Source of the DNA: an uncultured delta proteobacterium
Lineage (GTDB): Bacteria; Desulfobacterota; RBG-13-43-22
DNA: 64,000 nt
Direction of reading: 5' to 3'
Assembly (NCBI GenBank): GCA_963790475.1
Contig: CAWBOS010000011.1
Span: 224,001 to 288,000 of the forward strand
The notes below the pieces were generated by a model. The model was not told where the DNA came from. It was given only the letters and a program-made list of their open reading frames with translations, and did not search any database. A program made the translations under genes and the position numbers. Positions 28,980 through 51,615 of this stretch are shown piece after piece. Every line of letters begins with the position of its first letter. The first letter of the stretch is position 1.

Positions 28980-29325
28980 GACGACCGCCTGGCTGATGGC
29001 ATTATGCAGGTCCGCCGGGTCCTCGTCCAGGTCAGGCCCGGTTATGACGGGGTTTACGGGCAGGTAAAAATATTCAAAAATGATGTTCCCCCTCCCAAAC
29101 CTTCCTGTTAACTAAATCTTTTTTAGCCGCATTACTTACCAGAGCCTTTCAAAATCCCTTCAATCCCCGGAGATCCTATCTTTCAATGGTCCTAGTTCCG
29201 CCCTCCCATGTTCTTTCCTGTGTAATAGTTTTCTCTTAACGATGAATGCTCAACGCCAAACCTTCTTCCTCTCTTTCCCCTCTTTTCTTTTTTAGTAAAC
29301 TTTCTGGCCAACTGAAGGGTTTAGG
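28980..29325 (+). repeat. Repeat A, copy 2 (endoQ 3' end + tail)
   Basis: Reads DDRLADGIMQVRRVLVQVRPGYDGVYGQVKIF; 8 differences in the 96-nt core versus the resident gene. Confidence 0.9.
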
Positions 29326-29460
29326 TGAAAACTGAGCAGATATCCTTTTTTTGAATAAATAAGCATTCGGCCCTTTTAGCTGTTTTAACAAGTTTATTTT
29401 ATGCGTCAATTTGTAAGATCAAAATTCAAAAATAGACTTGAGCCTTTCACAGAAGTAAAA

Positions 29461-29670
29461 CCCAACCCCTTTATAGGAAACTTATCGCGCTTTTGTAAAA
29501 AGAAATACTCAATAAGAGAAAAGGGAGAGCCAATAAGAATAATTCAAGGAGCAAAACCGGAAGGGAGATTGTCTAATCAACTACCTATCAGATGTATAAC
29601 ATAATAAAATAATTGTATATATTTACAAATTATTTGGAAAACAACCGAATGGCATAAAGATTGCTTTATC
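29461..29670 (+). repeat. Repeat D, copy 1 (sigma54 leader region)
   Basis: Colinear with 48451-48650; shared ggaaacttatcgcgc; a further shared block at 29353-29400 matches 48684-48732. Confidence 0.7.
29650..29665 (+). promoter_or_regulatory. Sigma54 -24/-12 promoter
   Basis: TGGCATAAAGATTGCT (GG-N10-GC), upstream of the Rhs gene. Confidence 0.75.
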
Positions 29671-29976
29671 AACTAACTTGTTTGTTTGATATTTTTTAGG
29701 TCTTAAGCTTTCTTCCCTTTAAATACCCTTCACTCATATTTTGTGAAGTTAACATTTCTTTGCTTGTTGATATAGGTTTCCGGGCCTTATTGCCGATTGA
29801 AGTGATAGCTTAGCAAACATTTCTTTTTTTGAAAGAATAAGTATTAAATTTTTGTTGTTTTGATTAGTAAGTTTTCCCAGGGCTGGAGCAAAAGCAGGAA
29901 AATTCTATTAATCCTGATGGACAGATTTTTCTTCAGTTCAAGCAATTTAAATTTATTTTTTTTAAAGCGAGGTCCT

Positions 29977-32900
29977 ATGAAACTGTCTCGAAAATTGCCC
30001 GTCCTAATATTCATTTCCTTATCTTTCCTTCTCATCCTCGGCTACGTATCTTCCACAGCGGAAGATACAGAAATTTCCATCGAGGGAGATCCACGCAGCC
30101 TGGCCATCAATCCTACCACGAATCAGGCCTTGGTAGGCAGCGTTAAGCCTAATGAGATTTCGCTGGTGGATCTGGACACGGAACAGGTCATTTCCACTAT
30201 CGGGGTCGGGAAAAAACCTTTGGGAGTGGCCGTGGATTTAAGCAGAAACCTCGCCCTGGTCGTCCAAAAACCCAGCCATACCTTGTCGATTGTCAGCTTG
30301 GACACCCACCAAGTCCTGGCCAATATATCCGTTGGGAAGTCTCCCTCCAGTGTGGCTGTTTATGAAAGGGATAGCGGCCCCCATCTGGGCCTTACCGCCA
30401 ATTATAAGGATAATACGGTTTCGGTGGTCGATTTAAAACAGTTTATTGTCCTCCAAACGATCCCGGTGGGCCAGGGACCAAGGGATTTGGCCGTCGATTC
30501 CAATCTCGGTCTGGCCCTGGTGGTCAATGAAAAAGATGATACGGTATCGGGTATAGACCTGGGAAGCTTTCAGGTTACCTGGATGATTCCGTTGGGAAAC
30601 AAGCCCCGGGCAGTCAGCATCAATTCGGAGACCCATCTGGCCGCCACAGCCAATACCAAAGGGAACTCTATTTCCATCATCAACCTGACTCAGTGGCAGA
30701 CCCAGACGATCCCAGTGGATAAAAACCCAGTGGACCTGACCATGAATCCCTTAGACAATACGGTCCTGGTGGCTTGTGATAAAACCCAAAGCCTTCTTCG
30801 GATAGATTTGAATACCAACACGGCCCTTCAGGAGTATCCCTTGAACAAGAGAACTCGGGGGTTGGCCGTCAATCCCTTTACCAATATAGCCGCTGTGGTG
30901 GATGGTCAAACAGACAGCCTGACCCTGATTCAGCTTCCCAATCCTGTGCCGGTAATTGATGCAATCAATCCCACGACTGTTGCCAGAGGCAGTCTTGGGA
31001 CCACGCTGACGATTCAGGGTTCGGGTTTTCTTAAGACCTCGTCCGTATCTGTCCACCCTTCTCCGGATTTATTGCCGGTCACCTTTATCGACAATCATCA
31101 TCTGAGCATCACAATTCCCCAGGGATTCCTGGCCAAAGCCGGGACCTGGCAGGTTGTCGTTGCCAATCCTATCCCGGAAGGGGGTGTTTCCAATTCCGCA
31201 GTCCTTACCGTAATAAATCCGGTCCCGGCCATAACCACCATTGATCCTGCTTCCACTCCGGCGGGTGGCCAAGGATTGACCCTCACGGTTTACGGCACCG
31301 GCTTCTTTCCGGACACAAGTGTTTCGGTCAATGGGGCAATCAGACCCAGCACCTATATCAGCGGAACAGAGCTTCAGGTAACCCTTGCATCAACGGATAT
31401 AGCCTCTGGTGGCATCCTTTCGATCGCCGCCTCAAACTTGGCACCGGGTGGAGGGATATCGAACCCCATGTCCTTAACGGTCATGAACCCTGTACCGATT
31501 CTTTCTTCAATAGATCCGAATTCCATCAAGGCCGGCAGCCCTGGTTTTACCTTGAACTTGGCTGGCAGTAACTTTGTCACCGGCTCATCCATCCTGTTCA
31601 ACAACACATCGGTAACGGTCACCTATGTGGACAGCGCTCACCTTACGGCCTTCGTCCCGGCAACAGCCGTTGCCGCAAAAGGAACTTATCCGGTGGTGGT
31701 CACCAATCCTGGACCGGGAGGAGGGGCTTCCGGGTCCATCGATTTTACCGTAACCCCTTCTTCCAACGTCACCCCTTTGCCGGAAGGGGCCTATGGGAAG
31801 CAGTATGAAGACCTCTTCCCTTCTGATGCCACTATTCCCGGCTATGACCCCAAACGATTCTCCTTGATCACCGGGCTGGTCAATGATGCCACCGATAATC
31901 CATTGTCCAATGTGGTAGTAGGCATCCACAGCCATCCGGAATATGGAACGGCCCAGACCGATCCTGCGGGTAGGTTTTCCATCCCCTTGGACGGAGGGGG
32001 AACCGTCATAATGACCTATCAGAAAGCAGGATATCTTCCTGTCCACCGCCAGGTCAATATCGGCTGGAATACCATTGCCAATACCGAGACGATTATCATG
32101 ATCCCTGAGGATGCCGCATCAACGGCTATCAGCTTTGATGGTAATGCCTCAACCATTCTGACCCACCGAAGCACTCCGACCACCGATTCCTTCGGCACCC
32201 GGTCCCTGACCATGGTTTTCACCGGTGATAATCGGGCCTTGGTGAAAGATGACCAGGGCAATGAACAGCCCCTGACCAAAATCACCGTCCGGGCCACAGA
32301 ATATCCCACTCCGAAATCCATGCCGGCCAAGCTCCCGCCCACCTCGGCCTTTACCTACTGTGCTGAGCTGGCTGTAGATGGAGCCAAGAGCGTCAGGTTT
32401 GATAAACCAGTAGTGGTTTATGTGGATAACTTTCTAGGCTTCAATGTTGGCGAAATCGTGCCTGTGGGTTACTATGATCGGAACCGGGCTGTCTGGGTGC
32501 CCCAGAATAACGGCAAGGTGGTCCGGCTTCTCGATACCAATGGAGATAGAGTAGTCGATGCTTATACGGATGGGATTAATCAATATCCTGCCCCGGGCCT
32601 GACCGATCCGACTCAATACCCGCCCAATGCCACCTTTTGGCGGGTGGAACATACCCATTTTACCCCCTGGGATTATAACTGGCCATATGGTTTCCCATTA
32701 GATGCCATTTCCCCGAATCCGGAATATCCCCCTATTACTGATGGTCAATGCGCAAACGATGATAATTCTTGTATCAGCTCCTATGTAGAGAACAGAAGTC
32801 GAATCTTCCATGAAGATATCCCGATACCCGGCACGAACATGACCCTCCATTATGCGAGCAATCGGACCAAAGGACATAAATCAGTTATTACAATTCCGGC

Positions 32901-35900
32901 GAGCGGTTCGAGTGTACCGGCGACCCTGTTACGGATCATAGTCCGTATGACGGTTGCCGGCCGGACCTTTGAGACCTCGCTTTCTCCACAGCCGAATCAG
33001 AGAGGGGAATTTATTTGGGATGGCTTCGATTATTTGAACAAACCGGTTTTTGGTTCGACCATTGCCAATATCAGTATCGGGTTTGTCTACCCGACAATAT
33101 ATTATTCTTCCCCAAGCAGTTTTGAACAATCATTTGGTCAAGTAGGTACTTTCATAACCGGATTCCCTGTTGCCCGTCAGGAAATGACATCCTGGAAGCA
33201 GAGCGCGGTAATAATCTATCAGGGGAACACCGAAGAAATTGCAGAAGGCTGGACGCTCTCATCTCATCATTACTTTCAACCCGCTGATCCTTATACCCTG
33301 TATAAAGGAGACGGGACAACTCTTAAAAATAATGCCAAGGTTATCACCACCATTGCCGGTAATGGTCAGGCGGGTTTTAGTGGAGACGGAGGCCCTGCTA
33401 TTCAGGCAAATCTTTACGCCCCGGGAGGGGTAGTATTGGATGGGGTGGGGAATATTTATATAGCAGATAGTTGGAATGACCGGATAAGAAAGGTGGATTA
33501 CAACGGAATTATTACTACCGTTGCCGGTAATGGTCAGCGGGGGTACAGTGGAGACGGAGGACCTGCTACTCAGGCAAGCCTTTTCGAGCCCAGTTATGTA
33601 ACAGTAGATAATGCTGGAAATCTCTATATCGCAGACTTAGCCAACCATCGTATAAGAAAGGTAGATACAAATGGGATTATTACCACCATCGCCGGGAATG
33701 GTCAGGGGGGTCAGTATGTGCAGTTTTCTGGAGATGGAGGTCCGGCGACCCAGACGCCTCTTGGCTATATAAATGGAATAGCAGTAGATAATGCCGGGAA
33801 TCTTTACATTGCAGATGGTTGGTATAACCGTATACGGAAGGTAGATGTAAATGGAATTGTCACCACTATTGTCGGCAATGGCCAGTATGGCTACAGCGGG
33901 GACGGAGGTCCTGCCACGATGGCACAACTTGGTGGGCCTAATGGCGTAGCAGTAGATAATGAAGGAAATCTTTTTATAGTGGATGGATACAATACGAATC
34001 GGATAAGGAAGGTGGATGCAAGCGGAATTATTACTACTATTGCCGGGAATGGGCAGGCGGGTTACAGTGGAGATGGGGGACCCGCTATCCAGGCCAGTCT
34101 CAGTGGGGCAAGTGGTATAGCAGTGGACAATTCAAAGAACATTTATATAGGAGATAGTTGGGGCAACCGCATAAGAAAGATCGATACTAACGGGATTATT
34201 ACCACCTTTGCCGGCAATGGGCAGGCAGGCTTTAGTGGAGACGGAGGTCTGGCTATTCAGGCAAATCTTCTCGGGGCAAATTACATAGCAGTCGATAGTG
34301 CAGGTGCTGTATATATAGGAGATACTGGAAATCAACGGATACGAAAGGTTTCCTATCCGGAAGCATTCAGTTCCGTCGTCAATGCCGGCGACACCGCCTT
34401 CTCCGATGAAAATGGCCAAGGTTATATCATGTATAGCACTGGTCTCCATAAATCCACTATCGACCTGGAAACAGGAAAGACCCTGCTGACCTTCGGCTAT
34501 GACTCGGAAAACAGGCTTATTTCTATTACCGACCGATTCGGCAACCAGACCACGATTCAGAGGGATGGAAACGGGGTGCCCTTGTCGCTCGCTTCACCGG
34601 ATGGGATTATTACTCGTTTGACTGTTAACAGCAGCAACCATCTTACCGCCGTCACCTACCCGGATAATTCCGCCAATACCTTTACCTACACCTCAGACGG
34701 CCTCTTGACCGATAAATACGATCCCAAGGGAAACCATTTTGTCCATCAATTCGATACCAACGGGAGGATCTCCAACGTCTTCGATCCGGAAGGCGGATCC
34801 TGGAGTTTTTCAAGAAGTGTGGATAATTCCGCGACGGTCACAGCTACCACGCAGACCGCCGAAGGGAACACCACCACCTATCAGGACCGGACCGATTCTA
34901 CCGGGGCTTATACTTCGATCACCACCAGCCCCTTTGGTTCGGTGAGCACTTTTACCCGTTCCGCCGATGGTCTGACCGAAACCGAACAGCCGGCCTGTGG
35001 TCTAAACCAGACTATGAAATACGATCTCGATCCGGCCTTCAAATATAAATATCTCAAGGAATTCGCCCAGCGCTCACCCGCCGGGCTCACCCTGCTAACC
35101 GCCGACACCAGGAATTATCAAGACACCAATGCCGATAGTGTGCCTGATTTGATAACCAAAACCCTCGGTATAAACGGCAGGAACTGGACATTGATCAACA
35201 ACACCCATACCGGTATCCTGACCAGCACCTCGCCCTTGGGGAGGACCATAACCCGGAACTACAATCCTTTGAATCTGCTTACGCAGAACATGACAGTGAC
35301 CGGTCTTCTCCCCTTAACTTTGGGATATGACACCAGAGGAAGGCTGACCACCACCACAACCGGAAGCAGGGCATCGACGATCACCTATGACAATCGGGGC
35401 AATATCGAAAGCCTGGCCACCCCGGATGGGAAGACATTCCATTATACTTATGATTCAATGGGCAGATTGAAAAACCAGACCCTGCCTGACACTACGATGA
35501 TAAGTTATGATTACGACTCAAACGGCAACATGACCGTGCTGACCAATCCCCGAACCATCAGTCATGGCTTCGAATACACCGGCGTCAACCTGCGCAGGAC
35601 CATGACCACGCCCTTGTCCGGGAATTATCAGTACACCTATGACAAGGAACGAAATCTGAAGTCAATCCTCTTCCCTTCCGGTAGACAAATCAAAAATACT
35701 TATCTGAATGGTCTTCTATCAGCAACGACCACCCCGGAAGGAGTGACCAGCTATACATATACCTGTGGCACAAACCTTCAGGATGCGACCAGAGACACAG
35801 AGAAGGTAGCCTATACCTATGATGGCTCTTTGTTGAAAACCGATACGCGGACAGGATTGCTTAATCAGATCATCGAATATGGTTATGACAACGATTTCCG

Positions 35901-37266
35901 TCTTATCTCTTTAAACTATGCCGGCGCATCTCAGATCTTAACTTATGATAATGATGGTCTGTTAATCGGAGCCGGGTCATTCACCATCACCCGCAACGCC
36001 CTGAATGGATTAGCAGGAACTGTATCTGGCGGTACCCTGACCAATACCCGGACCTTCAGTGGTTATGGAGAGCTGGATGGCTCTGTATACCTGGTAGGAG
36101 GGATGAGCAAGTACAGCTATTCTTTGACCCGCGACCTGGCCGGCAGGATTACACAAAAGATTGAGAACGTTGATGGGATAACCGATACCTACGATTATTC
36201 TTACGATACCAACGGCAGGCTGAACGAAGTCAAAAAGAATAACATGGTCGTGGAATCCTATACCTATGATCCCAATGGCAATCGCCTCACTGAAATAAAC
36301 ACTCTCCGTGGTATTAACCGTCCCTATACTTTTTCGGATGAAGACCATATAATCAATGCAGGAGGTGAACCCTATCAGTTCGATGTTGATGGATTTATGA
36401 CCCAGAAGACGACCGCCGCCGGGAGCTTGGGAACTTCCTTTTCGTCAAGAGGCGAACTCCTCTCTGCTGCTTTACCTTCCGGTACCGTCATCACTTACGA
36501 CCACGACCCCATGGGCCGGAGAATAGCCAAAAGGGTGAACGGATCTATAATCGAGAAATATTTATGGAAAGACGCCATCACTTTATTGGCCGTCTATGAT
36601 TCCTCCAACAGCCTGATAATACGTTTCAACTATGCCTATGGACGACTGCCGGTATCGATGACTTACAATGGCATCACCTATTACCTCGCCTATGACCAGA
36701 TCGGATCTCTTAAAGCGGCTATCGATACCTCAGGTAACGTCGTTAAAAAGATTGACTACGATTCCTTCGGCAGTATAATTTCAGACACGAATCCATCAAT
36801 GAGCATTCCATTTGCATTCGCCGGAGGCCTTCATGACCGCGATACTAATCTCGTACGCTTCGGCGCCCGCGACTATGATCCTTCTATTGGCCGCTGGACC
36901 GCCAAAGACCCGATTGATTTTGGGGGAGGGGATACAAATCTGTATGGGTATGTGATGAATGATCCGGTGAATATGAATGACCCCTTTGGCTTATATTGTG
37001 GAAGCGGTATTTCTGAGTATTTTGTCCCAGATTCATGGTGGGGACAGTATAGTTTTAGTAATGCATGCAAAAAACATGATGATTGTTATGATACTTGTGG
37101 AAAAAAGAAACAAGAATGTGATAATAATTTTCTAAGAGACATGCGCCAAGAATGTTCTAAACTGGGAGGATACTGGCGGCAAGATTGCTCCGCTACATCA
37201 TACATATACTATCAAGCAGTCGATAAGCTTGGTGGCCCAGCTTATAAATCTTCGCAAAACAAATAA
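29977..37266 (+). CDS. Teneurin-like YD/Rhs protein: signal peptide, YVTN beta-propeller, three IPT/TIG domains, NHL repeats, YD shell, Rhs core and PLA2-like C-terminal domain
   Basis: Repeated AGNG..G.SGDGGPA (NHL), NPVP Ig-like units, YD repeats, RFGARDYDP..GRW..KDPI, PVNMNDPFG and CKKHDDCY. Confidence 0.88.
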   Translation: MKLSRKLPVLIFISLSFLLILGYVSSTAEDTEISIEGDPRSLAINPTTNQALVGSVKPNEISLVDLDTEQVISTIGVGKKPLGVAVDLSRNLALVVQKPSHTLSIVSLDTHQVLANISVGKSPSSVAVYERDSGPHLGLTANYKDNTVSVVDLKQFIVLQTIPVGQGPRDLAVDSNLGLALVVNEKDDTVSGIDLGSFQVTWMIPLGNKPRAVSINSETHLAATANTKGNSISIINLTQWQTQTIPVDKNPVDLTMNPLDNTVLVACDKTQSLLRIDLNTNTALQEYPLNKRTRGLAVNPFTNIAAVVDGQTDSLTLIQLPNPVPVIDAINPTTVARGSLGTTLTIQGSGFLKTSSVSVHPSPDLLPVTFIDNHHLSITIPQGFLAKAGTWQVVVANPIPEGGVSNSAVLTVINPVPAITTIDPASTPAGGQGLTLTVYGTGFFPDTSVSVNGAIRPSTYISGTELQVTLASTDIASGGILSIAASNLAPGGGISNPMSLTVMNPVPILSSIDPNSIKAGSPGFTLNLAGSNFVTGSSILFNNTSVTVTYVDSAHLTAFVPATAVAAKGTYPVVVTNPGPGGGASGSIDFTVTPSSNVTPLPEGAYGKQYEDLFPSDATIPGYDPKRFSLITGLVNDATDNPLSNVVVGIHSHPEYGTAQTDPAGRFSIPLDGGGTVIMTYQKAGYLPVHRQVNIGWNTIANTETIIMIPEDAASTAISFDGNASTILTHRSTPTTDSFGTRSLTMVFTGDNRALVKDDQGNEQPLTKITVRATEYPTPKSMPAKLPPTSAFTYCAELAVDGAKSVRFDKPVVVYVDNFLGFNVGEIVPVGYYDRNRAVWVPQNNGKVVRLLDTNGDRVVDAYTDGINQYPAPGLTDPTQYPPNATFWRVEHTHFTPWDYNWPYGFPLDAISPNPEYPPITDGQCANDDNSCISSYVENRSRIFHEDIPIPGTNMTLHYASNRTKGHKSVITIPASGSSVPATLLRIIVRMTVAGRTFETSLSPQPNQRGEFIWDGFDYLNKPVFGSTIANISIGFVYPTIYYSSPSSFEQSFGQVGTFITGFPVARQEMTSWKQSAVIIYQGNTEEIAEGWTLSSHHYFQPADPYTLYKGDGTTLKNNAKVITTIAGNGQAGFSGDGGPAIQANLYAPGGVVLDGVGNIYIADSWNDRIRKVDYNGIITTVAGNGQRGYSGDGGPATQASLFEPSYVTVDNAGNLYIADLANHRIRKVDTNGIITTIAGNGQGGQYVQFSGDGGPATQTPLGYINGIAVDNAGNLYIADGWYNRIRKVDVNGIVTTIVGNGQYGYSGDGGPATMAQLGGPNGVAVDNEGNLFIVDGYNTNRIRKVDASGIITTIAGNGQAGYSGDGGPAIQASLSGASGIAVDNSKNIYIGDSWGNRIRKIDTNGIITTFAGNGQAGFSGDGGLAIQANLLGANYIAVDSAGAVYIGDTGNQRIRKVSYPEAFSSVVNAGDTAFSDENGQGYIMYSTGLHKSTIDLETGKTLLTFGYDSENRLISITDRFGNQTTIQRDGNGVPLSLASPDGIITRLTVNSSNHLTAVTYPDNSANTFTYTSDGLLTDKYDPKGNHFVHQFDTNGRISNVFDPEGGSWSFSRSVDNSATVTATTQTAEGNTTTYQDRTDSTGAYTSITTSPFGSVSTFTRSADGLTETEQPACGLNQTMKYDLDPAFKYKYLKEFAQRSPAGLTLLTADTRNYQDTNADSVPDLITKTLGINGRNWTLINNTHTGILTSTSPLGRTITRNYNPLNLLTQNMTVTGLLPLTLGYDTRGRLTTTTTGSRASTITYDNRGNIESLATPDGKTFHYTYDSMGRLKNQTLPDTTMISYDYDSNGNMTVLTNPRTISHGFEYTGVNLRRTMTTPLSGNYQYTYDKERNLKSILFPSGRQIKNTYLNGLLSATTTPEGVTSYTYTCGTNLQDATRDTEKVAYTYDGSLLKTDTRTGLLNQIIEYGYDNDFRLISLNYAGASQILTYDNDGLLIGAGSFTITRNALNGLAGTVSGGTLTNTRTFSGYGELDGSVYLVGGMSKYSYSLTRDLAGRITQKIENVDGITDTYDYSYDTNGRLNEVKKNNMVVESYTYDPNGNRLTEINTLRGINRPYTFSDEDHIINAGGEPYQFDVDGFMTQKTTAAGSLGTSFSSRGELLSAALPSGTVITYDHDPMGRRIAKRVNGSIIEKYLWKDAITLLAVYDSSNSLIIRFNYAYGRLPVSMTYNGITYYLAYDQIGSLKAAIDTSGNVVKKIDYDSFGSIISDTNPSMSIPFAFAGGLHDRDTNLVRFGARDYDPSIGRWTAKDPIDFGGGDTNLYGYVMNDPVNMNDPFGLYCGSGISEYFVPDSWWGQYSFSNACKKHDDCYDTCGKKKQECDNNFLRDMRQECSKLGGYWRQDCSATSYIYYQAVDKLGGPAYKSSQNK

Positions 37267-37375
37267 TCTAAAATGCGAAAAATTTCGCAAAATTTGAGTA
37301 TATACAATAAAAAAACATTTTATTAAGTTATTGTTATTTAAAAAAATAAATATTGATTGTAAGTTTGAGGACAAT

Positions 37376-37657
37376 ATGAAAGGGTTTATTGGTTTTATAG
37401 TTTTTATTTTTTTAGATATTATTTTTTGTGTTGCTATTAGCATAAAAAGAAAGAAAATTTCACAAAAAATTGATTTTGTGGCCATTTTTTTATCGGCAAT
37501 TGCAACTACTATTTTATTTCATATCATCGCTGTGATCGAAGATTTTAAGAGCAGCCAATGGGTTATGATTTCGATTCCAGTAGCTTTCATCTTTGGCTTA
37601 CTTATCTCAAGCTTAACATCTATTATCTATCAAGGCTTTTTGCAGAAAACAAAATAA
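37376..37657 (+). CDS. Small three-TM membrane protein, candidate immunity protein
   Basis: AT-rich 93-aa hydrophobic ORF with SD gagg directly after the Rhs toxin tip. Confidence 0.55.
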   Translation: MKGFIGFIVFIFLDIIFCVAISIKRKKISQKIDFVAIFLSAIATTILFHIIAVIEDFKSSQWVMISIPVAFIFGLLISSLTSIIYQGFLQKTK

Positions 37658-37731
37658 GAATCCAAGGATCGAAGGAGTATACTACTTATTTCCCTTGCTA
37701 TGGCGGTTTTTTATTAATAGTAAAGTCTAAA

Positions 37732-37790
37732 GGGGTCACCCATCAAAAGGCCACCGTCGTGAGAAAAAGGTCGTCCGTATGGAAGAAAGT
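37732..37790 (+). repeat. Repeat B, short copy
   Basis: ggggtcacccatcaaaaggccaccgtc...ccgtatggaagaaag aligns with the copies at 40225 and 51065. Confidence 0.65.
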
Positions 37791-37801
37791 AAAGGAGGCA
37801 A

Positions 37802-41338: not shown

Positions 41339-41600
41339 CCAAGAGTGGCTTTACGCGGGGAGCCGATGGCTGGCGGCAACGGGTCGGCCTGATAGGCGCG
41401 TAGAAGGCCAAGCAGACCCTGACCTCTGTAGGAAACATTTGTTATTTCCTCTGTTTTTTTGTATAATTAAAATGGCTTAAAATCGGGAGGTTAGGATAGT
41501 CAAAATTAGGAGGGTTTTTCCCGCACGAATGTGGTAAAAAATGAAGGACATTGTCATTAATAAAATTATGGCTTAAAACTTGACGGAGGAGGTTATCTAA

Positions 41601-41786: not shown

Positions 41787-42720
41787 CTGGAACACCATCC
41801 TGGAAGATATTAGAAAACGCGGTGGTACTCATGACGTTGTACGACGTGAGTATTTGTACAAACTACATAAATTGACCGGACGCAATGTCATTGTGTACTA
41901 CTCAGGATGGCTCCAGAAGCCTGGGTTATTGGGTTCTGACATCAACGACGCAGACAAAAATGGGTTTATGACTGCAATCCATCAACTGGATCGCTCAAAA
42001 GGACTTGATCTTATCTTACATACGCCTGGCGGAGGAACGGCAGCTACAGAGTCTCTGGTTGATTATCTCTACTCTATGTTCAATACGAATATAAGAGCTA
42101 TTGTCCCGCAGATTGCATTGTCCGCTGGCACAATGATCGCTTGCGCCTGTCGCGAGATTCTTATGGGTAAACATTCTAGCCTCGGACCAATTGATCCCCA
42201 ATTTGGCAACGTTCCTGCCCATGGAATCATTGAAGAATTTAAGCGCGCCCACGAAGAAATCAAAGCCGACCCCTCCAAAATCCCAGTATGGCAACCTATC
42301 ATTGCAAAGTACCAGCCCACCCTAGTTGGCGAGTGTGAGAAGGCTATTAAATGGTCTATCAATATGACCCGGGAGTGGTTGCTCCGGGGCATGCTTGCAG
42401 GAAAGCCTGATGCTGAAGCAAAGGCTGATGCCATCTTAAATGAACTCGTTGATCATTCGCTCACATTATCTCATGCACGGCACCTTTCCGCGAGCAAATG
42501 TAAAAGTATCGGTCTTGAAGTTGTCATGCTTGAAGATGATCATAAACTCCAGGAAGCGGTGCTTTCAGTGCACCATGCCCTGATTCACACACTTTCCGCA
42601 ACCGGGGCATTCAAAATTATCGAGAACCATAAGGGTGTAGCTTTTATTCTGATATTTCAGCCTGCTATCGTTCAAGGTCCCGGGGGTAAACAACAATTAG
42701 CAGAAGCTCCAATGGCATAA
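41779..42720 (+). CDS. SDH_sah/S49-type ClpP-fold serine protease
   Basis: LDLILHTPGG, ALSAGTMIA, SSLGPIDPQ and SHAR. Confidence 0.85.
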   Translation: MPNWNTILEDIRKRGGTHDVVRREYLYKLHKLTGRNVIVYYSGWLQKPGLLGSDINDADKNGFMTAIHQLDRSKGLDLILHTPGGGTAATESLVDYLYSMFNTNIRAIVPQIALSAGTMIACACREILMGKHSSLGPIDPQFGNVPAHGIIEEFKRAHEEIKADPSKIPVWQPIIAKYQPTLVGECEKAIKWSINMTREWLLRGMLAGKPDAEAKADAILNELVDHSLTLSHARHLSASKCKSIGLEVVMLEDDHKLQEAVLSVHHALIHTLSATGAFKIIENHKGVAFILIFQPAIVQGPGGKQQLAEAPMA

Positions 42721-43135: not shown

Positions 43136-44002
43136 TCAATATTTCTTTTTAGCCTGTTCATTGAAAGGACCGTCACGAAATTCCAGCCAGCCCTTGAATC
43201 CCTTTTCCCGGGAGTGTTTGGATGCTTCGGCATTCCAGTCTGCGGACTCCTTGGTGGCATGGGTCATCTGGTGCCAGACATATTGATATTCAAAAGCCAT
43301 GGCCATTCCCATAAAGTCCTGGGCCTTGTTCATGGCGCGTTTGGTCAGGGCCACGGAAACCGGGGGCATCAGGGCAATCCGCTCAGCCAGTTTCAGGGCC
43401 TCGGCATCCAACCGATCATTCGCCACGATCCGGTTAATCATGCCCAGGCGCTCTGCCTCTTCCAGAGGAATAATATCCCCGGTCCACAGGTATTCCTTGG
43501 TCTTCCGGAAGCCTATCTCAAAGGGAAGAACCATCACTTCCCCGCCGCTGCCGCAATGGCGGATCGAGGGATTCCATAGCCGGGTATCCTCGGCCGCAAT
43601 AATGATATCACACATACAGGCCAGCATGATTCCCCCCAGCACCACGTTGCCTTTGATAGCGGCGATGGTAGGTTTTTTCAGATTTCGGATGGCCAGGCAT
43701 TTACTCAAATAATATTCATCCTCCAACTCCAGACGATCTTCAACACTTCTGCGGTGACGTTCCCGATAGTCCTGCTGGAGTTCATCACCGGGGATAGGAC
43801 TCAAATCATGCCCGCTGGAAAAGGATTTTCCGGCCCCGCACAGGATAATCACCCGGATGTTCGGATCCCGATCCGCCTTTTGGGCCGCCTCATCGAGCTC
43901 CAGAATCAACCTGGCGTTCTGGGCATTGTGGGTCTCCGGCCGGTTGAGCGTAATCCGGACCACAGGACCTATTTCCTCATAAAGTATAGCCTGCCTTTCC
44001 AT
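43136..44002 (-). CDS. Enoyl-CoA hydratase/isomerase family protein
   Basis: ITLNRPE..NA, FSSGHDL and KPTIAAI.G...GG; SD aggagg. Confidence 0.9.
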   Translation of the reverse strand: MERQAILYEEIGPVVRITLNRPETHNAQNARLILELDEAAQKADRDPNIRVIILCGAGKSFSSGHDLSPIPGDELQQDYRERHRRSVEDRLELEDEYYLSKCLAIRNLKKPTIAAIKGNVVLGGIMLACMCDIIIAAEDTRLWNPSIRHCGSGGEVMVLPFEIGFRKTKEYLWTGDIIPLEEAERLGMINRIVANDRLDAEALKLAERIALMPPVSVALTKRAMNKAQDFMGMAMAFEYQYVWHQMTHATKESADWNAEASKHSREKGFKGWLEFRDGPFNEQAKKKY

Positions 44003-44379
44003 CGTTTTCCTCCTTTGATTATTAGATTTACCCCCCCTGGAGTTGATCACCGAATCGACAGGCTCGGTTGTCTGTCCGTCCCGCGCCGCCGAAAACTCGC
44101 CGGTGCATCTTTTCTCCTACACATCAGCTATATACCTTTGCAAGGTCCTCTGTCACGACAATTTATAGAGGCCGCAAGGCATGGTGGCCTTCATAAAACC
44201 TCTCATAATAAAGCGGACCATTGCAGGCCATATTGCCGGTGGCTTCCAGACGCAATCTGCCGACGGGCCCGTCCTTATTCGCAAAACATTTCGGATTTAT
44301 CATCCTTCCAGATGCTATCAAAGGATTGTTTTGATGAGTGAAGGTGGTCCCCAACAATTGGTCAATGTTCACGTTTCCC

Positions 44380-45288
44380 CTATTTTATTTTCCAGTTTCG
44401 GTAGGCCCGGAGGGGCAGGATAAGACCAAAGAATGGAATCATATACATGGCGGCCACTGTGGGCTCCAGGGGTGTGAAGAATTGAGAGCTAAAAACGATT
44501 ACGAGCACATTGTTCATGATGCCAAGGCTAATGATTGCGGCCAATTGATCCTGCAATGGCCTCCCCCAAGCCAGAATAAGGCCTGATAATAGATAGAGGC
44601 CGCCGAGAATGATCGCCACCAGGATCGATACCGCGATTGTCCCAGGTCTTTGATAGAAAAAGTCAGAGTATTTGGAAAATATTCCCAAGTTGGTCAAAGC
44701 AAAAAGAACCAAAGCGATATAATACTGGTTCTTCATCAATGTCTGAGTAAGTCCCTCCGAAAACTTTCTAACCCCTTCAGCCAGTAAAATGGGAATGAAG
44801 ATGACCATAGACAAAAGCCTGATCATGCTTAATAGAGAAATATCCAGCGCCTTTCCGAAAAGAAAATCCACGAGCGCAGGGAGAGTGAAAGGAACCAGGA
44901 GCGACGATATGATGACCATGACGAGAACGACGGATGTGTTGGCTCCAAGAAGATTCGAGATGAAGGGCGCAACAACACCAGTGGATATCCCGCTCAAAAG
45001 CAAGGCAGACAAAGCATATTCGGGCCATATAATTTTGAATAGGATAGCGATCGTCAATGGCAGGAGGATCATTCGTATGACCAGAAAAAGCGAGATTTCC
45101 CCGAGAGATTCTGTCAGGGTCTTCTTAATGTCGGCAATGCGAAGAGGAAGAAAACTAAGAAATAGGAGGGTCATCATGGAATAAAAAGGGACGGGCTGAA
45201 AAATAGAGCTAAAACCAGGGGAAAAGATTCCTGTAAGAATGGATGAATAGATCACCACTAAGAGAATCGCATCTTTTGCACGAAACAT
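44380..45288 (-). CDS. Bile acid:sodium symporter family membrane protein
   Basis: Multi-TM 302-aa protein with LLGAN, SSLLVPFTLP and GIMNN. Confidence 0.7.
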   Translation of the reverse strand: MFRAKDAILLVVIYSSILTGIFSPGFSSIFQPVPFYSMMTLLFLSFLPLRIADIKKTLTESLGEISLFLVIRMILLPLTIAILFKIIWPEYALSALLLSGISTGVVAPFISNLLGANTSVVLVMVIISSLLVPFTLPALVDFLFGKALDISLLSMIRLLSMVIFIPILLAEGVRKFSEGLTQTLMKNQYYIALVLFALTNLGIFSKYSDFFYQRPGTIAVSILVAIILGGLYLLSGLILAWGRPLQDQLAAIISLGIMNNVLVIVFSSQFFTPLEPTVAAMYMIPFFGLILPLRAYRNWKIK

Positions 45289-45754
45289 CCTTTAACCTCT
45301 CCCTCCTCTATCCAACGACAATAGAAGAGCGATTTCCGACCTTTGTTCAGACAATAAGGAGTCTTTTTGGGGAGTCAGAGATTACGGGATTGGGTCTTGT
45401 GTGTCAAGACAAAATCAATCCACGATGTCGGGCGGTTTTACCTATCGAGATATTAGTCATTTGTTGGGTGTTGATTTTCTCAAACTGATATTTAGTAAAA
45501 TTCGCTTACTACATTGAAGGAACCCCAAACCATCGATTCTCATTCTTCTTTTGATGTCCTTCTTCCAGGGCAAAATGGACATTCAGTTCCATGGCTTCTG
45601 TTGTTGATAATCGCTTTCCATTCATGACCTCTCGAACAGATCCACCAAACTATTATGGAATGACTTAGGATTAAAGCAAAGGGAATCTCTGGCGATTAAA
45701 AGCGAAATAATCGAAAAAGGATGTTAAGAGATTGAGTTGCAAGAGCAGGAAATT

Positions 45755-45787
45755 AAAAAAGGGGGAATAGTTTAATATCCCCCCTTT
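45755..45787 (-). terminator. Intrinsic terminator of the small exported protein gene
   Basis: aaaggggga...tccccccttt stem followed by a U tract on the minus strand. Confidence 0.65.
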
Positions 45788-45808
45788 GTGGAAATTTATG
45801 AAAAGAGA

Positions 45809-46027
45809 TTATTTCTTTTCCGCAGGAGCTGCAGGAGCTTCTTCTTTCTTTTCTTCCTTCTTCACTTTGGCTTTCTTTACCACCTTTTTCTTTGCTGCCT
45901 TTTTCTTCACCGGGGCCTTTTCTTCAGCCTTGGCCGGTTCAGAAGCAGCCTTTTCCTCAGCGGCGAAAGCAAAGGAAACCGTCATCGCGAAAGCCATTGC
46001 CATAAGCAACGTAATCATCTTCTTCAT
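45809..46027 (-). CDS. Small exported Ala/Lys/Glu-rich low-complexity protein
   Basis: Signal peptide ending AFA; SD aaggaggtg; own promoter and terminator. Confidence 0.75.
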   Translation of the reverse strand: MKKMITLLMAMAFAMTVSFAFAAEEKAASEPAKAEEKAPVKKKAAKKKVVKKAKVKKEEKKEEAPAAPAEKK

Positions 46028-46118: not shown

Positions 46119-46513
46119 ATATAATTAATAACGTTTTTACAATAAGTTGGATAAAATAGGGTTTTTTTGAAAGGGAAATATTGCAAATCTTGGGAAATAT
46201 CTGGAAACTTATCTTAGAATTTATAATTTCTGGAAAGTAATTATTATAAGACCGCCCCGGGGATTGGAATATACGGCCGTGGTCATTCCCATTCTCATTC
46301 AGCACTATATCTCCTTTCAGAGAAACAGGACCTATACCGGGGCTACCAGGGGGAAAAAGTTGGTATTAAAAGGGTCAACTCTCCGGTTCCTGAAAAACAA
46401 GAGGTTAAAAAAGAGCTATGAGATTTTAAGGAAAGGTTTAATAATAGGTCAAATGGAGAACCTGACCCCTTTTTAACACCATAAATTCAAATGCTAAATA
46501 CAAGGAGGTAGAA

Positions 46514-46848: not shown

Positions 46849-47892
46849 ATGGGCAAACAGCAGCAAATTACCGAACCATGTGAACTTCTCGACGAAAACG
46901 GGTTGTTGACAAAACCGGGGTATGCCACAAGGGCCTTCTGGCGCTATGACCGAAACAAAATCAAGGCTGGCTGGTATCGGATTAAGGAATGGGATTATTA
47001 TGCGGTCCTTTGCCAGGAAGAAGGATTCGGTATCAGCTTTGCCATGGCCGATCTGGGTTATATCGGGTCGGCCGGCGTCGGTTGGCTTGATTTTAAGGAA
47101 AAAAACTACAGGCATATCGGATCGACGTTGAATTTACCCAAAGGGAAAATGGGATTCCCTTCAACCCCGGATAAAGGAGAAGTGGCCTTCGCCGACAAAA
47201 AGATAAGGCTCAAGTATATCGTGTCCGGCCCCGAAAGGATTATTCAGGTTGAAGCGCCGGGGTTCATCGATAATAAAGGGCGAAAGGGTCTCAAAGGAGA
47301 GCTGAGATTATACCAAGACCCGGAAATGGACAGCATGGTCATCGCCACTTCCTGGGAGGAAAATCGAAAGGCTTTTTATTACAATCAAAAAACTAATTGT
47401 ATGCCGGCCAGGGGAACCATTACCATAGGCGACCGGCCGTACGAGTTCAATCCGCAATCCTGTTTCGGGGTACTGGACTGGGGGCGGGGGAACTGGACCT
47501 ATAAAAACAGGTGGTATTGGGGATCGGCCTCGGGTCTGCTCAATGGGCACCCCTTCGGCTGGAATATCGGCTATGGTTTCAGCGATCGTTCACCGGCCAC
47601 GGAAAATATGCTGTTTTATGATAATAAGGCTCACAAACTGGAAGAGGTGGCTTTTCATATCAACACCGACGATTACCTGGCACCCTGGAAATTTGCCAGC
47701 AACGACGGGCGGTTTGAGATGGACTTCACTCCTATTCTTGACCGGCATGCCGCTTCGGAAATTTTGTTTTTAAAGACCGTTCAACACCAAGTCTTCGGGA
47801 CCTTCGATGGTAAGGCGGTGCTTGACGACGGAACGGTACTTCAAGTCTCCAATTTCCTCGGGTTTGCCGAAGATGTATTGAACTGGTGGTGA
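46849..47892 (+). CDS. DUF2804-like protein
   Basis: RIKEWDYY, FYYNQK, LDWGRG.W.Y...WYW and QHQVFG. Confidence 0.8.
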   Translation: MGKQQQITEPCELLDENGLLTKPGYATRAFWRYDRNKIKAGWYRIKEWDYYAVLCQEEGFGISFAMADLGYIGSAGVGWLDFKEKNYRHIGSTLNLPKGKMGFPSTPDKGEVAFADKKIRLKYIVSGPERIIQVEAPGFIDNKGRKGLKGELRLYQDPEMDSMVIATSWEENRKAFYYNQKTNCMPARGTITIGDRPYEFNPQSCFGVLDWGRGNWTYKNRWYWGSASGLLNGHPFGWNIGYGFSDRSPATENMLFYDNKAHKLEEVAFHINTDDYLAPWKFASNDGRFEMDFTPILDRHAASEILFLKTVQHQVFGTFDGKAVLDDGTVLQVSNFLGFAEDVLNWW

Positions 47893-48068: not shown

Positions 48069-48266
48069 TGGGGTGCCCTGCTTTGACGAGATTGACGATT
48101 TAGCTGAGGGAGGGAAGACAAAAACAAAATGCAAAAAAATGGACCCCCGACTGTGAACTTCATTGAACGGCTGTCTCGGCCCCTGCCAGAAACCAAGACA
48201 AGGCCGTCTTCAAAGACCGCCAAGACTGTGAATTTTTTCTTGAGGTAAAAAGCTAAACATTATAGA

Positions 48267-48335
48267 TCCGCCCTCCATGTTCTGTCCCGGTGTTAAGATT
48301 TTTTCTCCTGACGACGAACGATGAACGCGCAACGG
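48267..48335 (+). repeat. Repeat A tail, degenerate copy
   Basis: tccgccctccatgttc...gaacgatgaacgcgcaacg. Confidence 0.6.
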
Positions 48336-48450
48336 TGAGCGTCTCAGATTTTCCTGGCTTTTCCGTTTCCTTTGTTGTTTAATAAGTTTGTTTTCTTGAA
48401 TATAAAGAAAAAAATTACCCGGAGATTCTTCATCCTTTTTTGGAGGCAAA

Positions 48451-48650
48451 TCCTAACCCTTTATGGGAAACTTATCGCGCTTATGTGAAAAAAAATACCC
48501 CAAAGAGAGAAAATGAGGAGACAAAAAAAGTAATTCAGGACCGAGACTTGAAAGGGGATGATTCATTTTATGAACCTATTTGATACGTAAGACTTTAAAA
48601 AAAGTTTAAGTTTTTTGAAACAGAGATAAATGGCATAAAAACTGCTTTAT
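48451..48650 (+). repeat. Repeat D, copy 2
   Basis: Colinear with 29461-29670. Confidence 0.7.
48631..48646 (+). promoter_or_regulatory. Sigma54 promoter
   Basis: TGGCATAAAAACTGCT (GG-N10-GC). Confidence 0.65.
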
Positions 48651-48839
48651 TAATTAGTATCTATCTTCAGAGGTTTCCTTTCCGAATGAATAAGTATTCA
48701 GCCTTTTTAGCTGTTTTTAATCTGTTTTATTTTGGATTAGCAGTAGCAAGAGTCAAACGTAAGCTTAATCCCTTTATTGGCACATTAGGTCTCCCGCCTG
48801 TTATGAATAGACATAGTCGGGGGAGATTGTTCTGCCCAT

Positions 48840-50999
48840 TTGGAACCTATTAAATTATTAATGAATAAGCCAGGAATCAGACCAGGGATCGGTAAGATCA
48901 TTGAGGTCCGGAATTTATTGGAGGAAGAAGAAACCAAGGGCCGTGATCTGACCTATGGGAATTTATTTGAATTGGTCCGATTATTAACCGAAGGAGAACT
49001 GGAGAGAGGATTCAACAATGCCAAAAAGATCCCCCGCAAAAAACTGATCGACCTTCTCAATTATTTCAATTTCTCTGAGAGAGAATTTTTAGTTGTTTTC
49101 AGTCATCCCCAATACGATGAGATCGTAACCCGGGCCATCAAACCCCAGCCCTGTCAGGAAGGCACCATTTCCGGCCTATGGGCCCGCCCGGGGGACTATA
49201 GTGAATCTTTGAAAGATTTCGAAGTGCTTTGTTTTCTGATTGAAAACGAGAGAGAAATCCTTTTGGCCCAATCGCGGCGCGTCGAAATAGATGAGCAGGG
49301 GATTGGGTTGACCTTGCCGGAATTCGGTTTTGAAATCATTATACGGAAAACCAATCGATACCCCTGCCATCAGGTTCAGGCGGAATTGATTCAAAACGGG
49401 ATTCTTTTCCCAGGGCGTCTGGATGTCTTCAGCGTCAACTCTTTTCGGGTGGAAGTCTTTTCCGAAGAAGGAAAATCTTTAAAATGGATTAATTCCGAAT
49501 ATCCTGTCCAAATCATTCTAAAGGATCGAGAAGAAATTTTATATTCCCGGCAGTGTAAAATAGTCAAGCAGAGGGAAAATCTTAATACGAAAACTTTAGT
49601 ATTGGAACCCAACCATGAACCTATCCATAGATTCAAACGAAGAGAGTTTCGTGCCTCGAGAACAACCCTGCATCCGTCCCCCGGGGTTTATTGCCTTCAC
49701 CCATTGATTAAGAGACTAATAAAATTTAATGTCTGCGATATATCGACTTCCGGTTTCTCCGTGGAAGAAGAAGGGGGATCCTCCACACTTCTGCCGGGAA
49801 TGATCATTCCCGACCTTCAAATCGAGCTGGCCAATACCGCCACCTTATCCTGCAAAGCCCAGGTCATTTATCAAAATAAAATGGAAGACACGGTTGTCAA
49901 ATCCGGCTTTACTATTTTAAATATGTCCAATGAAGACTATATTAAATTAACCAACCTGGTCAATAAATCCATGAATATTAATCTGGATATTTGCGGGACC
50001 ATTGAACAGGAATCTTTGTGGCAATTTTTCTTCCAGGCCGGATTTATCTATCCGCAAAAATATCATTATATCCAGCAAAATAAAGAAGATTTTAAAAACA
50101 TTTATAAAAAGATCTATCAAAGTCCGACGGAAATCGAGAGACATGTTACCTACCAGGAGAGGGGAAGCATACTGGGACATATCTCCATGCTCCATGTTTA
50201 CGGTGCCACCTGGATGCTTCACCACTTTGCAGCCACCCCCAGTTCCAGACACAAGAAAGTGGCCTTGACCCTGTTGCAGCAGATCGAACAGTATATCATC
50301 GATTCCCATTATCTTGAATCTACCCGGATGGATAACATCATCTGTTATTTCCGGCCGGAAAACAAGTTCCCCAATCTGGTTTTCGGAGGAGCGGCCAGGG
50401 CGTTAAAAAACCCGAAGATCTGTTCGCTGGATCGTTTTGCCTATATCTCCTACCCCATGATCCTGAGCCCCCATCAAGGGGAACTTCCCGAACCCTGGAC
50501 TATGACCCCGACCGGGCCGAACGATTTGGACGAACTGGCCCATTTTTATAACCATACCTCCGGAGGGCAAATGATCCAAGCCCTTGATCTGTATCCGGAT
50601 ACATTGAAAGACGATCGTTTAAACCAAACCTATCATCGCCTGGGTTTTAAACGGGAACGTCATCTTTTTTCGATCAAAAAGAAAGGCAAGGTCAAGGCTA
50701 TCATAAGCCTGATCAAAACCGATACCGGCTTGAATTTATCGGAATTGACCAATTGTGTAACGCTGTTTGTTTTGGAACCGGAAAGTTTTCCTTTTGAGGT
50801 GTTCTTAAAGACTTTTTCTCAGTTGGGGGTCCATGATGAACGTCAAACGATCCCTGTTTTAATTTATCCTGCCCAATATGCCGAACGTCATGCCATGGCC
50901 TGTGACCGTTTTTATGACCTCTGGGTTTTTGGGGTGGAAAACAGCGATCATTATTTCAATTACGTCAATAAGATCTTTTCGCGCCTTGTTTCTTTATAG
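48840..50999 (+). CDS. Large PilZ-domain-like protein with possible GNAT-like C-terminal region
   Basis: RKTNR and RASR...DISTSGF (RxxxR/DxSxxG); C-terminal GHISM...TWMLHH. Confidence 0.65.
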   Translation: MEPIKLLMNKPGIRPGIGKIIEVRNLLEEEETKGRDLTYGNLFELVRLLTEGELERGFNNAKKIPRKKLIDLLNYFNFSEREFLVVFSHPQYDEIVTRAIKPQPCQEGTISGLWARPGDYSESLKDFEVLCFLIENEREILLAQSRRVEIDEQGIGLTLPEFGFEIIIRKTNRYPCHQVQAELIQNGILFPGRLDVFSVNSFRVEVFSEEGKSLKWINSEYPVQIILKDREEILYSRQCKIVKQRENLNTKTLVLEPNHEPIHRFKRREFRASRTTLHPSPGVYCLHPLIKRLIKFNVCDISTSGFSVEEEGGSSTLLPGMIIPDLQIELANTATLSCKAQVIYQNKMEDTVVKSGFTILNMSNEDYIKLTNLVNKSMNINLDICGTIEQESLWQFFFQAGFIYPQKYHYIQQNKEDFKNIYKKIYQSPTEIERHVTYQERGSILGHISMLHVYGATWMLHHFAATPSSRHKKVALTLLQQIEQYIIDSHYLESTRMDNIICYFRPENKFPNLVFGGAARALKNPKICSLDRFAYISYPMILSPHQGELPEPWTMTPTGPNDLDELAHFYNHTSGGQMIQALDLYPDTLKDDRLNQTYHRLGFKRERHLFSIKKKGKVKAIISLIKTDTGLNLSELTNCVTLFVLEPESFPFEVFLKTFSQLGVHDERQTIPVLIYPAQYAERHAMACDRFYDLWVFGVENSDHYFNYVNKIFSRLVSL

Positions 51000-51064
51000 C
51001 TTGGGGGTCCCCCTCCCCTTTCTCAAGACCTTTGAACAAAGTCCCCAGACCAGAAAATCTTTGG

Positions 51065-51190
51065 CCATGGGGTCACCATTAAAAAGCCACCGTCTAGAGA
51101 AAAGGTTTTCCGTATACAAGAAGAAGCTTTTTTCTTGCAGTGCATAGGCATGATAGAACTGCCCAAGATTTCCAACGTCCTTACCTTTCG
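51065..51190 (+). repeat. Repeat B, copy 3
   Basis: Directly precedes repeat A copy 4. Confidence 0.7.
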
Positions 51191-51193
51191 TCA

Positions 51194-51615
51194 GATAGAA
51201 CGAGGCCGGTCCGAGTTTTGGATTTTAATGGATCTTGAGGAAAAAGAAATGCGGTCTTTATGGACGGCCGCCTGGCCGATGGAATTATGCAGGTCCGCCG
51301 GGGCCTGGTCCAGTTCAAGCCCGGCTATGACGGGGTTTACGGGCAGACAAAAATTTCCCGAAATGATGTCCTCCTGCCAAAACCTTCCTCCCAACTCACA
51401 CTTTCTTACCGCCATATTTACCAGAGCCTTTCACAAGCCTGGCATTCCCCGGAGGTCCTTTTTTCATGTAACAAATCCCGACCTCCATGTTCTTTCCCTG
51501 TGTAATGGTTTTCTCTGAACGATGAACGCTCAACGCCGAATGTCTTTTCCTTCTCCCTTGCCCCCCTTCCCCTCTTTTTTTTTGGTAAACTTTCCGGCCA
51601 TGGCCCGGTTTAGGA
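51194..51615 (+). repeat. Repeat A, copy 4 (longest; endoQ 3' end + tail)
   Basis: IERGRSEFWILMDLEEKEMRS / MDGRLADGIMQVRRGLVQFKPGYDGVYGQTKI...SSQLTL with a 1-nt indel. Confidence 0.9.

Follow-up and report, generated by a model that had tools for sequence, protein, structure and literature searches.

Why should the same few intergenic sequences recur, always in one orientation, between blocks of unrelated genes? The question is raised by a 64,000-nucleotide stretch (hereafter the window) of a contig from an uncultured delta proteobacterium of the Desulfobacterota lineage RBG-13-43-22 (assembly GCA_963790475.1, contig CAWBOS010000011.1, positions 224,001 to 288,000). Within positions 28980-51615 of the window, a preliminary description distinguished four repeat families, A to D, and proposed that an ancestral unit A-D-cargo-B-C had been iterated with replacement of its cargo, the repeats acting as recombination anchors. 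We find that A consists of displaced copies of the 3' end of an endonuclease-Q-family gene (endoQ), which lies intact outside that span, and that C is the left end of a transposon of the TIRtron type. On balance we favor, with some reserve, a lineage-wide insertion hotspot that would be anchored on the 3' end of endoQ, filled by homology-anchored insertion and littered with TIRtron debris. The repeats themselves are somewhat better read as leftovers piled up where the lineage keeps gaining DNA than as parts of one dedicated cassette unit.

Four repeat families of different origin

All of the named families were recovered at their described positions when the window was compared to itself by blastn. 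Copies of A are 79-88% identical over 104-344 bp, those of B 80-82% over 56-115 bp, those of C 83-92% over 40-114 bp, and those of D 77% over 113 bp. Leave-one-out nhmmer searches retrieved 19/19 held-out copies, all on the plus strand, in line with the co-orientation described before, with E values from 4e-50 to 9e-4. Their scores were at least 15.7, whereas five block-shuffled windows gave 8.8 at most, so the alignments are significant; the best E value outside the families was 0.059. By boundaries of our own drawing, the repeats occupy 2966 of the 6163 intergenic bases of the span.

The repeats are confined to the variable zone: B, C, and D have zero copies in window positions 1-18 kb or 52-64 kb, and in eight relatives the 10 kb of conserved flank upstream likewise lack them. 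The view of the locus as one that swaps cargo without attC sites is supported. The four families differ in origin, comprising a host gene end, a transposon end, a candidate promoter, and a simple repeat. Because identity among the copies is only 73-92% and independent genomes contain them too, they do not represent an assembly artefact, an explanation to which we give almost no credence.

Repeat A and the endonuclease Q gene

Where does A come from? At the left edge of the hotspot stands the intact source gene (17326..18618, + strand), which encodes a 430-residue PHP nuclease of the endonuclease Q/TIGR00375 type. It matches TIGR00375 at E 9e-49, below the NCBIfam cutoff; its homologs are named endonuclease Q family/TIGR00375, and the closest named relative, from Deltaproteobacteria RBG_13_43_22, shares 90% protein identity. 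The final 74 codons of this gene, with about 100 bp of tail and no heptamer core, constitute A0, the master copy of A (18397..18719, +). The A copies listed from 28980 onwards are real, but this master copy lies outside the span then considered. What was called the tail of A is the intergenic DNA downstream of endoQ.

Three displaced copies follow, all on the plus strand and all decaying. A1 (28978..29315, found by self-blastn and nhmmer) carries a premature stop, the tail, and the heptamer core. A2 (41202..41339, self-blastn) is truncated, present as described but without a tail. A3 (51189..51600), the longest, has a 1-bp deletion and has lost its stop; it also retains the tail and core, and its alignment to A0 (18397-18719 versus 51194-51499, 82%, E 1e-82) is the longest A match in the window. 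A partial tail with core lies at 48262..48357 (+; held-out nhmmer E 4.5e-12). The starts of A1, A2, and A3 correspond to positions 18472, 18469, and 18397 of the intact gene. At the A1 junction a NucT/phospholipase-D-like nuclease gene has been cut, leaving a 5' fragment (28746..28977, +; NCBIfam NucT E 4e-4). The A copies are 73-84% identical to one another and no nearer A0 than the alleles of other species.

Repeat C and TIRtrons

Of 76 candidate proteins, 44 matched a profile built from the C1, C2, and C3 pieces; most of the 44 have 326 residues with Y1_Tnp and Bac_DnaA_C domains (PF01797+PF08299). A profile of these full-length transposases in turn matches C1 (E 5e-19), C3 (7e-16), and C2 (6e-7); the full-length relatives score 70-74 bits against NF047646, below its 80-bit cutoff. 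C derives from a TIRtron, an element with a Y1/HUH transposase bearing a DnaA-type tail, of which it retains the left end and the first 21-52 codons. C1 (37792..38000, +) comprises the left end, a promoter-like stretch, and the first ~52 codons of the 326-residue transposase, with an internal stop. In C2 (42820..43100, +) the left end and 21 codons are fused to A tail and core, and C3 (47916..48075, +) has the left end, an internal deletion, and codons ~8-44.

These three copies had been listed correctly, but a further member had been overlooked. It is a 105-bp mini-TIRtron (46367..46472, +), which consists of a left end, the last ~30 transposase codons, and an inverted right end, and which also occurs in a relative (L003, below). 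The transposase C-terminus was located by tblastn at 46363-46458 (E 4e-6). GGGGWSAS is strictly matched by the right end, at 46469, which is complementary to the degenerate C left ends; UvrD_C and short-chain reductase debris flank the element. TIRtrons and their TIRYT transposases (TnpA-REP subclass 2.1.2) are characterized by a Y1 transposase with a Bac_DnaA_C tail and by GGGGWSAS inverted ends that overlap the 3' end of the gene (PMC3733652, 10.1101/279083). No intact TIRYT gene was found in the window or in the eight relative loci, where only fragments occur, and C has no match in plasmids. The idea that C, B, the mini-element, and the tail are structured nucleic acids was rejected, folding having given z-scores of -0.66 to +1.37.

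A short palindrome at 41171..41189 resembles a collapsed pair of TIRtron ends. The spacer after C3 (48090-48160) resembles by eye the residues after the truncated transposase in two short database proteins, P0128 and P0131, which may point to a C-derived mini-element that recurs; tblastn gave no extension into the spacer. Other transposase genes lie outside the span. An IS200-like Y1 domain (2200-2904, -; Pfam Y1_Tnp E 2e-10) with a cysteine-rich N-terminal extension of ~120 residues adjoins a LexA-type helix-turn-helix (HTH) gene and does not belong to the C family. Two tandem IS1182-family copies, 84.7% identical over 1432 bp and the first frameshifted near its end, are found at 54682-57770.

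The locus in relatives

Is the variability peculiar to this genome? A scan of GTDB genomes yielded 572 candidate stretches and, from these, 15 loci. Eight are syntenic relatives, six of them with 10 kb of downstream sequence; relatives were examined 10 kb to either side of endoQ and are cited by locus label (L001 and so on). Upstream synteny, comprising genes that we take from their sequences to be glgP, thiD, thiC, birA, and purD-purE, is kept and ends within ~15 bp of the endoQ stop in 8/8 relatives, and downstream content differs. In L003 the order is endoQ, HDOD, D1, Rhs, immunity, B, and mini-TIRtron. L004 reads core, HicBA, core, E (a fifth intergenic module), a broken BamHI-type restriction-modification (R-M) system, core, E, a displaced endoQ fragment of its own (E 2e-15), VapBC, BrnTA, and the start of B. 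L005 has HTH/IrrE, core, VapC, BrnTA, and the start of B, and lacks any displaced A over 10 kb. A vocabulary of modules is shared at the locus in three of the six relatives, but their order is not.

The R-M system of L004 (11293-13560) lies within the hotspot and retains a controller protein. L001 and L002 have a cupin gene in common (14664-15029 and 15358-15723, respectively; 79.8%), their downstream regions being otherwise unrelated.

Could in-genome tandem duplication of an ancestral unit A-D-cargo-B-C, with cargo replaced between the repeats, account for this arrangement? Some of the recurring adjacencies hold: D and B flank two cargos (Rhs with its immunity gene, and the PilZ-like gene), tail and core precede D twice and follow C twice, all repeats are co-oriented, and L003 shows a similar order once. 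However, the unit is complete only once, and since this copy has an ortholog in L003 it is one inherited block. D, though a genuine repeat, consists of two permuted blocks, D2-D1-(E)-D2' at 29330-29896 versus D1-D2 at 48435-48770. The junction of C with the A tail does occur twice, but with unlike breakpoints: a 3-bp gap after codon ~21 in one case and a 187-bp spacer after codon ~44 in the other. L004 and L005 have other orders and other modules, B in L005 standing apart from any displaced A, and the A copies are no nearer A0 than are other species' alleles. We therefore consider iteration of such a unit improbable, about as much so as the transposase-driven schemes discussed below or slightly more. 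Local duplication of tail, core, and D as one step is likely.

Exchange of gene ends and modules

The endoQ genes of L004 and L005 differ at 60/974 positions in the body and at 44/235 in the 3' part (permutation p 0.002, breakpoint near 18338 in window coordinates, last 15 codons left out of the test). Divergence of the 3' parts is at the level seen between distant species, and the ratio of 3.0 compares with 0.77-1.62 in 26 of the 27 remaining endoQ pairs; here one gene end has clearly been replaced. A weaker step separates L006 from L007 at 18347 (p 0.026). An exchange between the window and L002 was also considered, given 96% identity in the conserved part, and was rejected at a permutation p of 0.22.

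A cargo module has been exchanged as well. BrnTA of the window is 91-93% identical to its L004 and L005 counterparts, which occupy this locus too, compared with 80-87% for core genes, and synonymous changes affect 21 and 23 of 172 codons versus 84/325 (p 3e-4 and 1e-3). On these comparisons, BrnTA has moved between species at the endoQ site. Two features expected of a homology-anchored array are found at the locus, a mosaic 3' end of the anchor (L004/L005) and an exchanged foreign module (BrnTA).

Displaced gene ends may also exist elsewhere. A search of 1.84 billion representatives yielded, for the most part, short pieces lacking context. Thirty short database proteins match the endoQ C-terminus. 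Five (P0169, P0172, P0179, P0193, and P0194) look decayed or derailed; P0194 runs into the same tail, and one of the 30 is A2 of the window.

How might such a locus arise? The 3' end of endoQ, the last conserved sequence before the variable region, would act as the landing site for incoming DNA. Provided that this DNA carried a related endoQ 3' end, it would recombine there and give the gene a new end, while the old end and the intergenic DNA downstream of it (tail, core, E/D2) would be displaced to a position beyond the new cargo. At its far end the incoming DNA would be joined without long homology, resulting in cut genes such as the NucT fragment, and three such events would produce A1-A3. 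TIRtrons would insert in this neutral zone and decay into C, the mini-element, palindromic scars, and probably B; the D promoter region would be duplicated with its neighborhood and reused before a second gene; and deletions would erode each copy differently. The idea that the repeats act as recombination anchors is plausible for A. Homology-anchored displacement is the route proposed for type VI secretion system (T6SS) and Rhs arrays (PMC5361080).

Several observations weigh against homology-anchored insertion. No displacement event was observed directly, the window contains no competence genes, and L001, L002, and L007, three of the six relatives with a 10-kb flank, have neither a displaced fragment nor B, C, or D. 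The window endoQ shows no significant breakpoint versus L001, L002, or L003 (p 0.94, 0.22, and 0.06), the L006/L007 step could be rate variation, and both breakpoints fall near 18340, which a fixed crossover fits equally. A 150-bp tree of the A copies is without resolution (bootstraps 21-61, one pair excepted). Among the short database proteins, P0165 is a frameshifted piece and the remainder may be contig-edge pieces; more than 20 unaligned N-terminal residues occur in 10/155 short proteins, in which displacement is not separable from frameshifts or contig edges. Finally, homology-facilitated illegitimate recombination is described as rare (PMC5361080).

Integrases and attachment sites

Would a site-specific integrase explain the locus more simply? 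The array could be a decayed tandem series of integrase islands that used endoQ as attB and supplied a ~280-bp replacement 3' end, their integrases since lost and their ends eroded from the left. Cargo typical of island ends is present in the form of toxin-antitoxin (TA) pairs, an R-M remnant, and a NucT fragment; both replacement breakpoints lie near 18338-18347, and A3, P0169, and P0172 all begin near residue 358-359. An intact A0 is accompanied by the co-oriented displaced A1-A3, and L004 has a fragment as well; a regenerated gene with displaced fragments is the standard island signature (PMC4383910, PMC13626634).

Against this, scans of 29, 21, and 49 open reading frames (ORFs) detected no integrase or resolvase; those of 1-17 kb lie mostly outside the scan and look like housekeeping genes. 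Six-frame reads (78) of 13 intergenic stretches contained no integrase and only ORF6N, DUF4379, UvrD_C, and reductase debris, and the ORFs that were scanned 3' of endoQ in L001-L005 and L007 include neither an integrase nor a remnant of one. There is no common sequence to the left of A1, A2, A3, and the L004 fragment. These four fragments have four start points (18397, 18469, 18472, and ~18542) that differ by up to ~145 bp, which is unlike one fixed crossover. No tRNA or tmRNA gene occurs in the window, so there is no tRNA attachment site. We regard integrase islands as unlikely, if the most serious of the alternatives.

An integron-like system in which the heptamer core would be a new attachment site seems next to impossible. 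Like integrons, the array is variable, TA-rich, and co-oriented, with repeated spacers. attC sites have the motif RYYYAAC...GTTRRRY and a bottom-strand hairpin. Pairs of this type number 4 in the window versus a mean of 4.3 in 20 shuffles, fold weakly, and match none of the repeat families. Unlike integrons, the locus has no IntI, its core is unstructured, its spacers are of mixed origin, and its cargo blocks are multi-gene, of 1-10 kb, on both strands, and equipped with promoter matches of their own. Rfam gave nothing at gathering score in the window.

What then is the core? It consists of three to four degenerate 7-mers inside the A tail. It had been singled out as conserved and open to a test of covariation, an idea that did not survive: eight copies yield 0 consensus pairs and no covariation, and 7-mer arrays of the same class occur on either strand in conserved intergenic DNA of L001, L002, L003, L005, and L007. 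Such tandem arrays, at 17195-17360 and 5830 in the window and in intergenic core regions of L001-L005, are species-specific and occupy matching intergenic positions (e.g., purE-endoQ) on opposite strands with units that differ per genome.

Repeats B and D and module E

Three copies of B lie in the window, all on the plus strand: B1 (37729..37792), truncated and beginning with the GGGGWSAS motif; B2 (40228..40470), which continues into an ORF6N gene fragment; and B3 (51066..51185). Across six copies the left edge is sharp after four different cargos, and four of the six open with the strict terminal inverted repeat (TIR) motif; L004 and L005 have only the first ~30 bp of B in common with the window. 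B is probably the end of another TIRtron family, a reading weakened by the shortness of the motif, which has 18 strict matches in 64 kb (7 of them in 28980-51615). Neither a cognate gene nor an inverted partner of B was found in the window or the relatives' loci.

Other identities for B were tried and rejected. As a gene fragment, it has no Pfam or NCBIfam match in six frames, and its variable columns are spread 20/20/19 by codon position. Transposase comparison ruled out a C-terminal part of the C transposase; a structured element is disfavored by a weak consensus fold, with 1/14 pairs showing a double change; and searches of plasmids and phages gave weak matches in the ORF6N part only. By eye there is no similarity to the IS1182 ends at 54.6-57.8 kb. 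An IS110 end was suggested by a fragment beside B in L003, presumably IS110 N-terminus-like, for which Pfam and NCBIfam gave no match.

Might a TIRYT transposase be the engine of the locus? Such an enzyme, of the Y1/HUH class, would cut and join single strands at GGGGWSAS ends and build a cassette-like array at endoQ. TIR-type ends and scars number at least 8 in the hotspot of the window, in addition to the sharp edge of B. GGGG[AT][CG] is found within 130 bp upstream of three of the four displaced fragments, against a background of 0.144 (p about 0.01, post hoc), and in two of these cases it forms a palindrome, at -28/-29; TIR-like motifs lie 19-36 bp past the endoQ stop in L001 and L003 (2/9 genes; background 0.089). 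Yet the loci hold no intact TIRYT gene, no inward-facing pairs of ends surround the cargos, one end only points leftwards, and so short a motif is common. TIRYT is widespread, but a literature search, with most subscription papers outside it, turned up just two works that mention it and none that reports its mobility or the capture of cargo. We consider a TIRYT engine distinctly improbable. Much the same holds for a mixed scheme in which endoQ homology would set the site of an integrase-free array, TIR ends (C, B, and scars) would make the other junction, and TA, defense, and Rhs genes would be exchanged between species. If TIRYT did make the junctions, the TIRYT class would gain a function, and the locus would be a cassette system without integrase or attC.

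D can be resolved into two parts, D1 and D2, the latter grouped with module E. Before the Rhs gene, a diverged E/D2 segment (29282..29440, +; E model E 4e-5, D2 held-out E 9e-4) is followed by D1 (29443..29680, +), an AT-rich upstream region ending at 29650-29665 in a match to the -24/-12 consensus of sigma-54 promoters. Between this motif and Rhs lies E with a second D2 piece (29708..29896, +), absent in L003 and present twice in L004. The other copy (48436..48763, +) has D1, with one mismatch in the motif (48631-48646), and then D2. The motif is kept in 3/3 D copies. Among the window and the 15 loci, a perfect match occurs in D1 only, its L003 ortholog being situated 40 bp before the Rhs start; the motif count alone is at chance level (26/100 shuffles). 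Its position and conservation suggest that D is a candidate sigma-54 promoter region, which would have been duplicated with its neighborhood and reused before a second gene. Module E is ~150 bp long and 77-84% identical among window 29708-29856 and L004 10945-11098 and 14061-14181; it has no Rfam match and a weak fold, with 1/10 pairs showing a double change.

Cargo genes of the window

The first cargo block (18866..28410) contains ECF sigma/anti-sigma, heavy-metal sensor, methyltransferase, chromate transporter, thiolase pair, TetR, and substrate-binding protein genes (Pfam); no blastn match to it exists 3' of endoQ in any of the eight relatives. A fragment after the chromate transporter gene (23420-23580), which we assume to be molybdate/sulfate transporter-like, has no Pfam match. 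Next comes a teneurin-like Rhs gene with a phospholipase-A2-like tip and a small membrane protein, the putative immunity protein (29860..37657, +; Pfam/NCBIfam). The Rhs protein (29860-37266; L003 11565-18821) has 2468 residues with NHL, YD shell, TIG, and YVTN propeller regions. The L003 ortholog of this block is 74.7% identical over 7743 bp, not closer than core genes.

A TIGR04255 gene and two unannotated genes follow (38068..40052, -; NCBIfam), with a 12/12 sigma-70 promoter match at 40089-40061. These are the genes of the putative ART triad of the preliminary description, for which an ADP-ribosyltransferase fold would be expected. The two partners have no Pfam, NCBIfam, or PADLOC match, and a 146-residue gene of this group falls in unnamed Atlas clusters (0.96, low recognition). 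The BrnT-BrnA TA pair (40556..41144, +; Pfam) and a small ORF with an SDH/ClpP-like protease gene (41602..42720, +; Pfam/NCBIfam) lie on either side of A2. Enoyl-CoA hydratase, bile-acid symporter family, and small secreted protein genes (43136..46027, -), with DUF4379 debris between them, precede a DUF2804 gene (46849..47892, +; Pfam). The last gene (48840..50999, +) encodes a putative PilZ/GNAT protein of 719 residues. Its description as PilZ is backed by Atlas only (0.99; PilZ on 46% of members), whereas Pfam gave just a GNAT stretch. PADLOC had no match for 11 window proteins.

Outside the repeats, behind the small Lys/Ala-rich secreted protein gene, a sub-threshold Rfam L20_leader match (45747-45852, -; 36.9 bits, cutoff 58.7, E 5e-4) is probably a terminator. 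Palindromic intergenic elements in the conserved region (13969-14048 and 15132-15326, with 28-nt and 30-nt arms) presumably resemble repeats found beside GIY-YIG and GxxExxY genes.

Comparison with known systems

A gene-end hotspot with displaced fragments is of a known kind. To the gene-end insertion sites recognized so far, endonuclease Q contributes a new hotspot of the protein-coding type, from a Desulfobacterota lineage that is uncultured; no report of it as such a target was found in titles and abstract starts, most subscription papers being outside the search. An array at endoQ would escape island finders based on integrases and tRNAs. The ends of the TIRtron family and its several mini-derivatives provide ready substrates for the TIRYT class of transposases, for which the papers searched contain no assay.

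Three known systems besides integrons invite comparison. The C copies and the mini-element share with TIRtrons (PMC3733652, 10.1101/279083) the Y1 and Bac_DnaA_C domains and the GGGGWSAS inverted ends at the 3' end of the gene; B has only the end motif in common with them. Unlike described TIRtrons, those here are fragments, mini-elements, and scars, densely clustered at one locus and without an intact gene. In the icd/icdC attachment of prophage e14 and in tandem islands of the Islander type, target fragments are displaced by insertion (PMC13626634, PMC4383910). There, as here, the 3' end of a gene is swapped and pseudogene copies of the end lie 3' of the inserted DNA, whereas our locus has an endonuclease Q target, no integrase or phage genes, variable fragment starts, and three fragments in a single array. 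Vibrio T6SS effector-immunity arrays and Rhs orphan tips likewise have a conserved upstream anchor with older 3' ends shifted downstream (PMC5361080). Our locus differs from those arrays in that a housekeeping gene for DNA repair forms the anchor, the cargo (TA pairs, metabolism, Rhs) bears no relation to that gene, and the displaced ends have no evident use.

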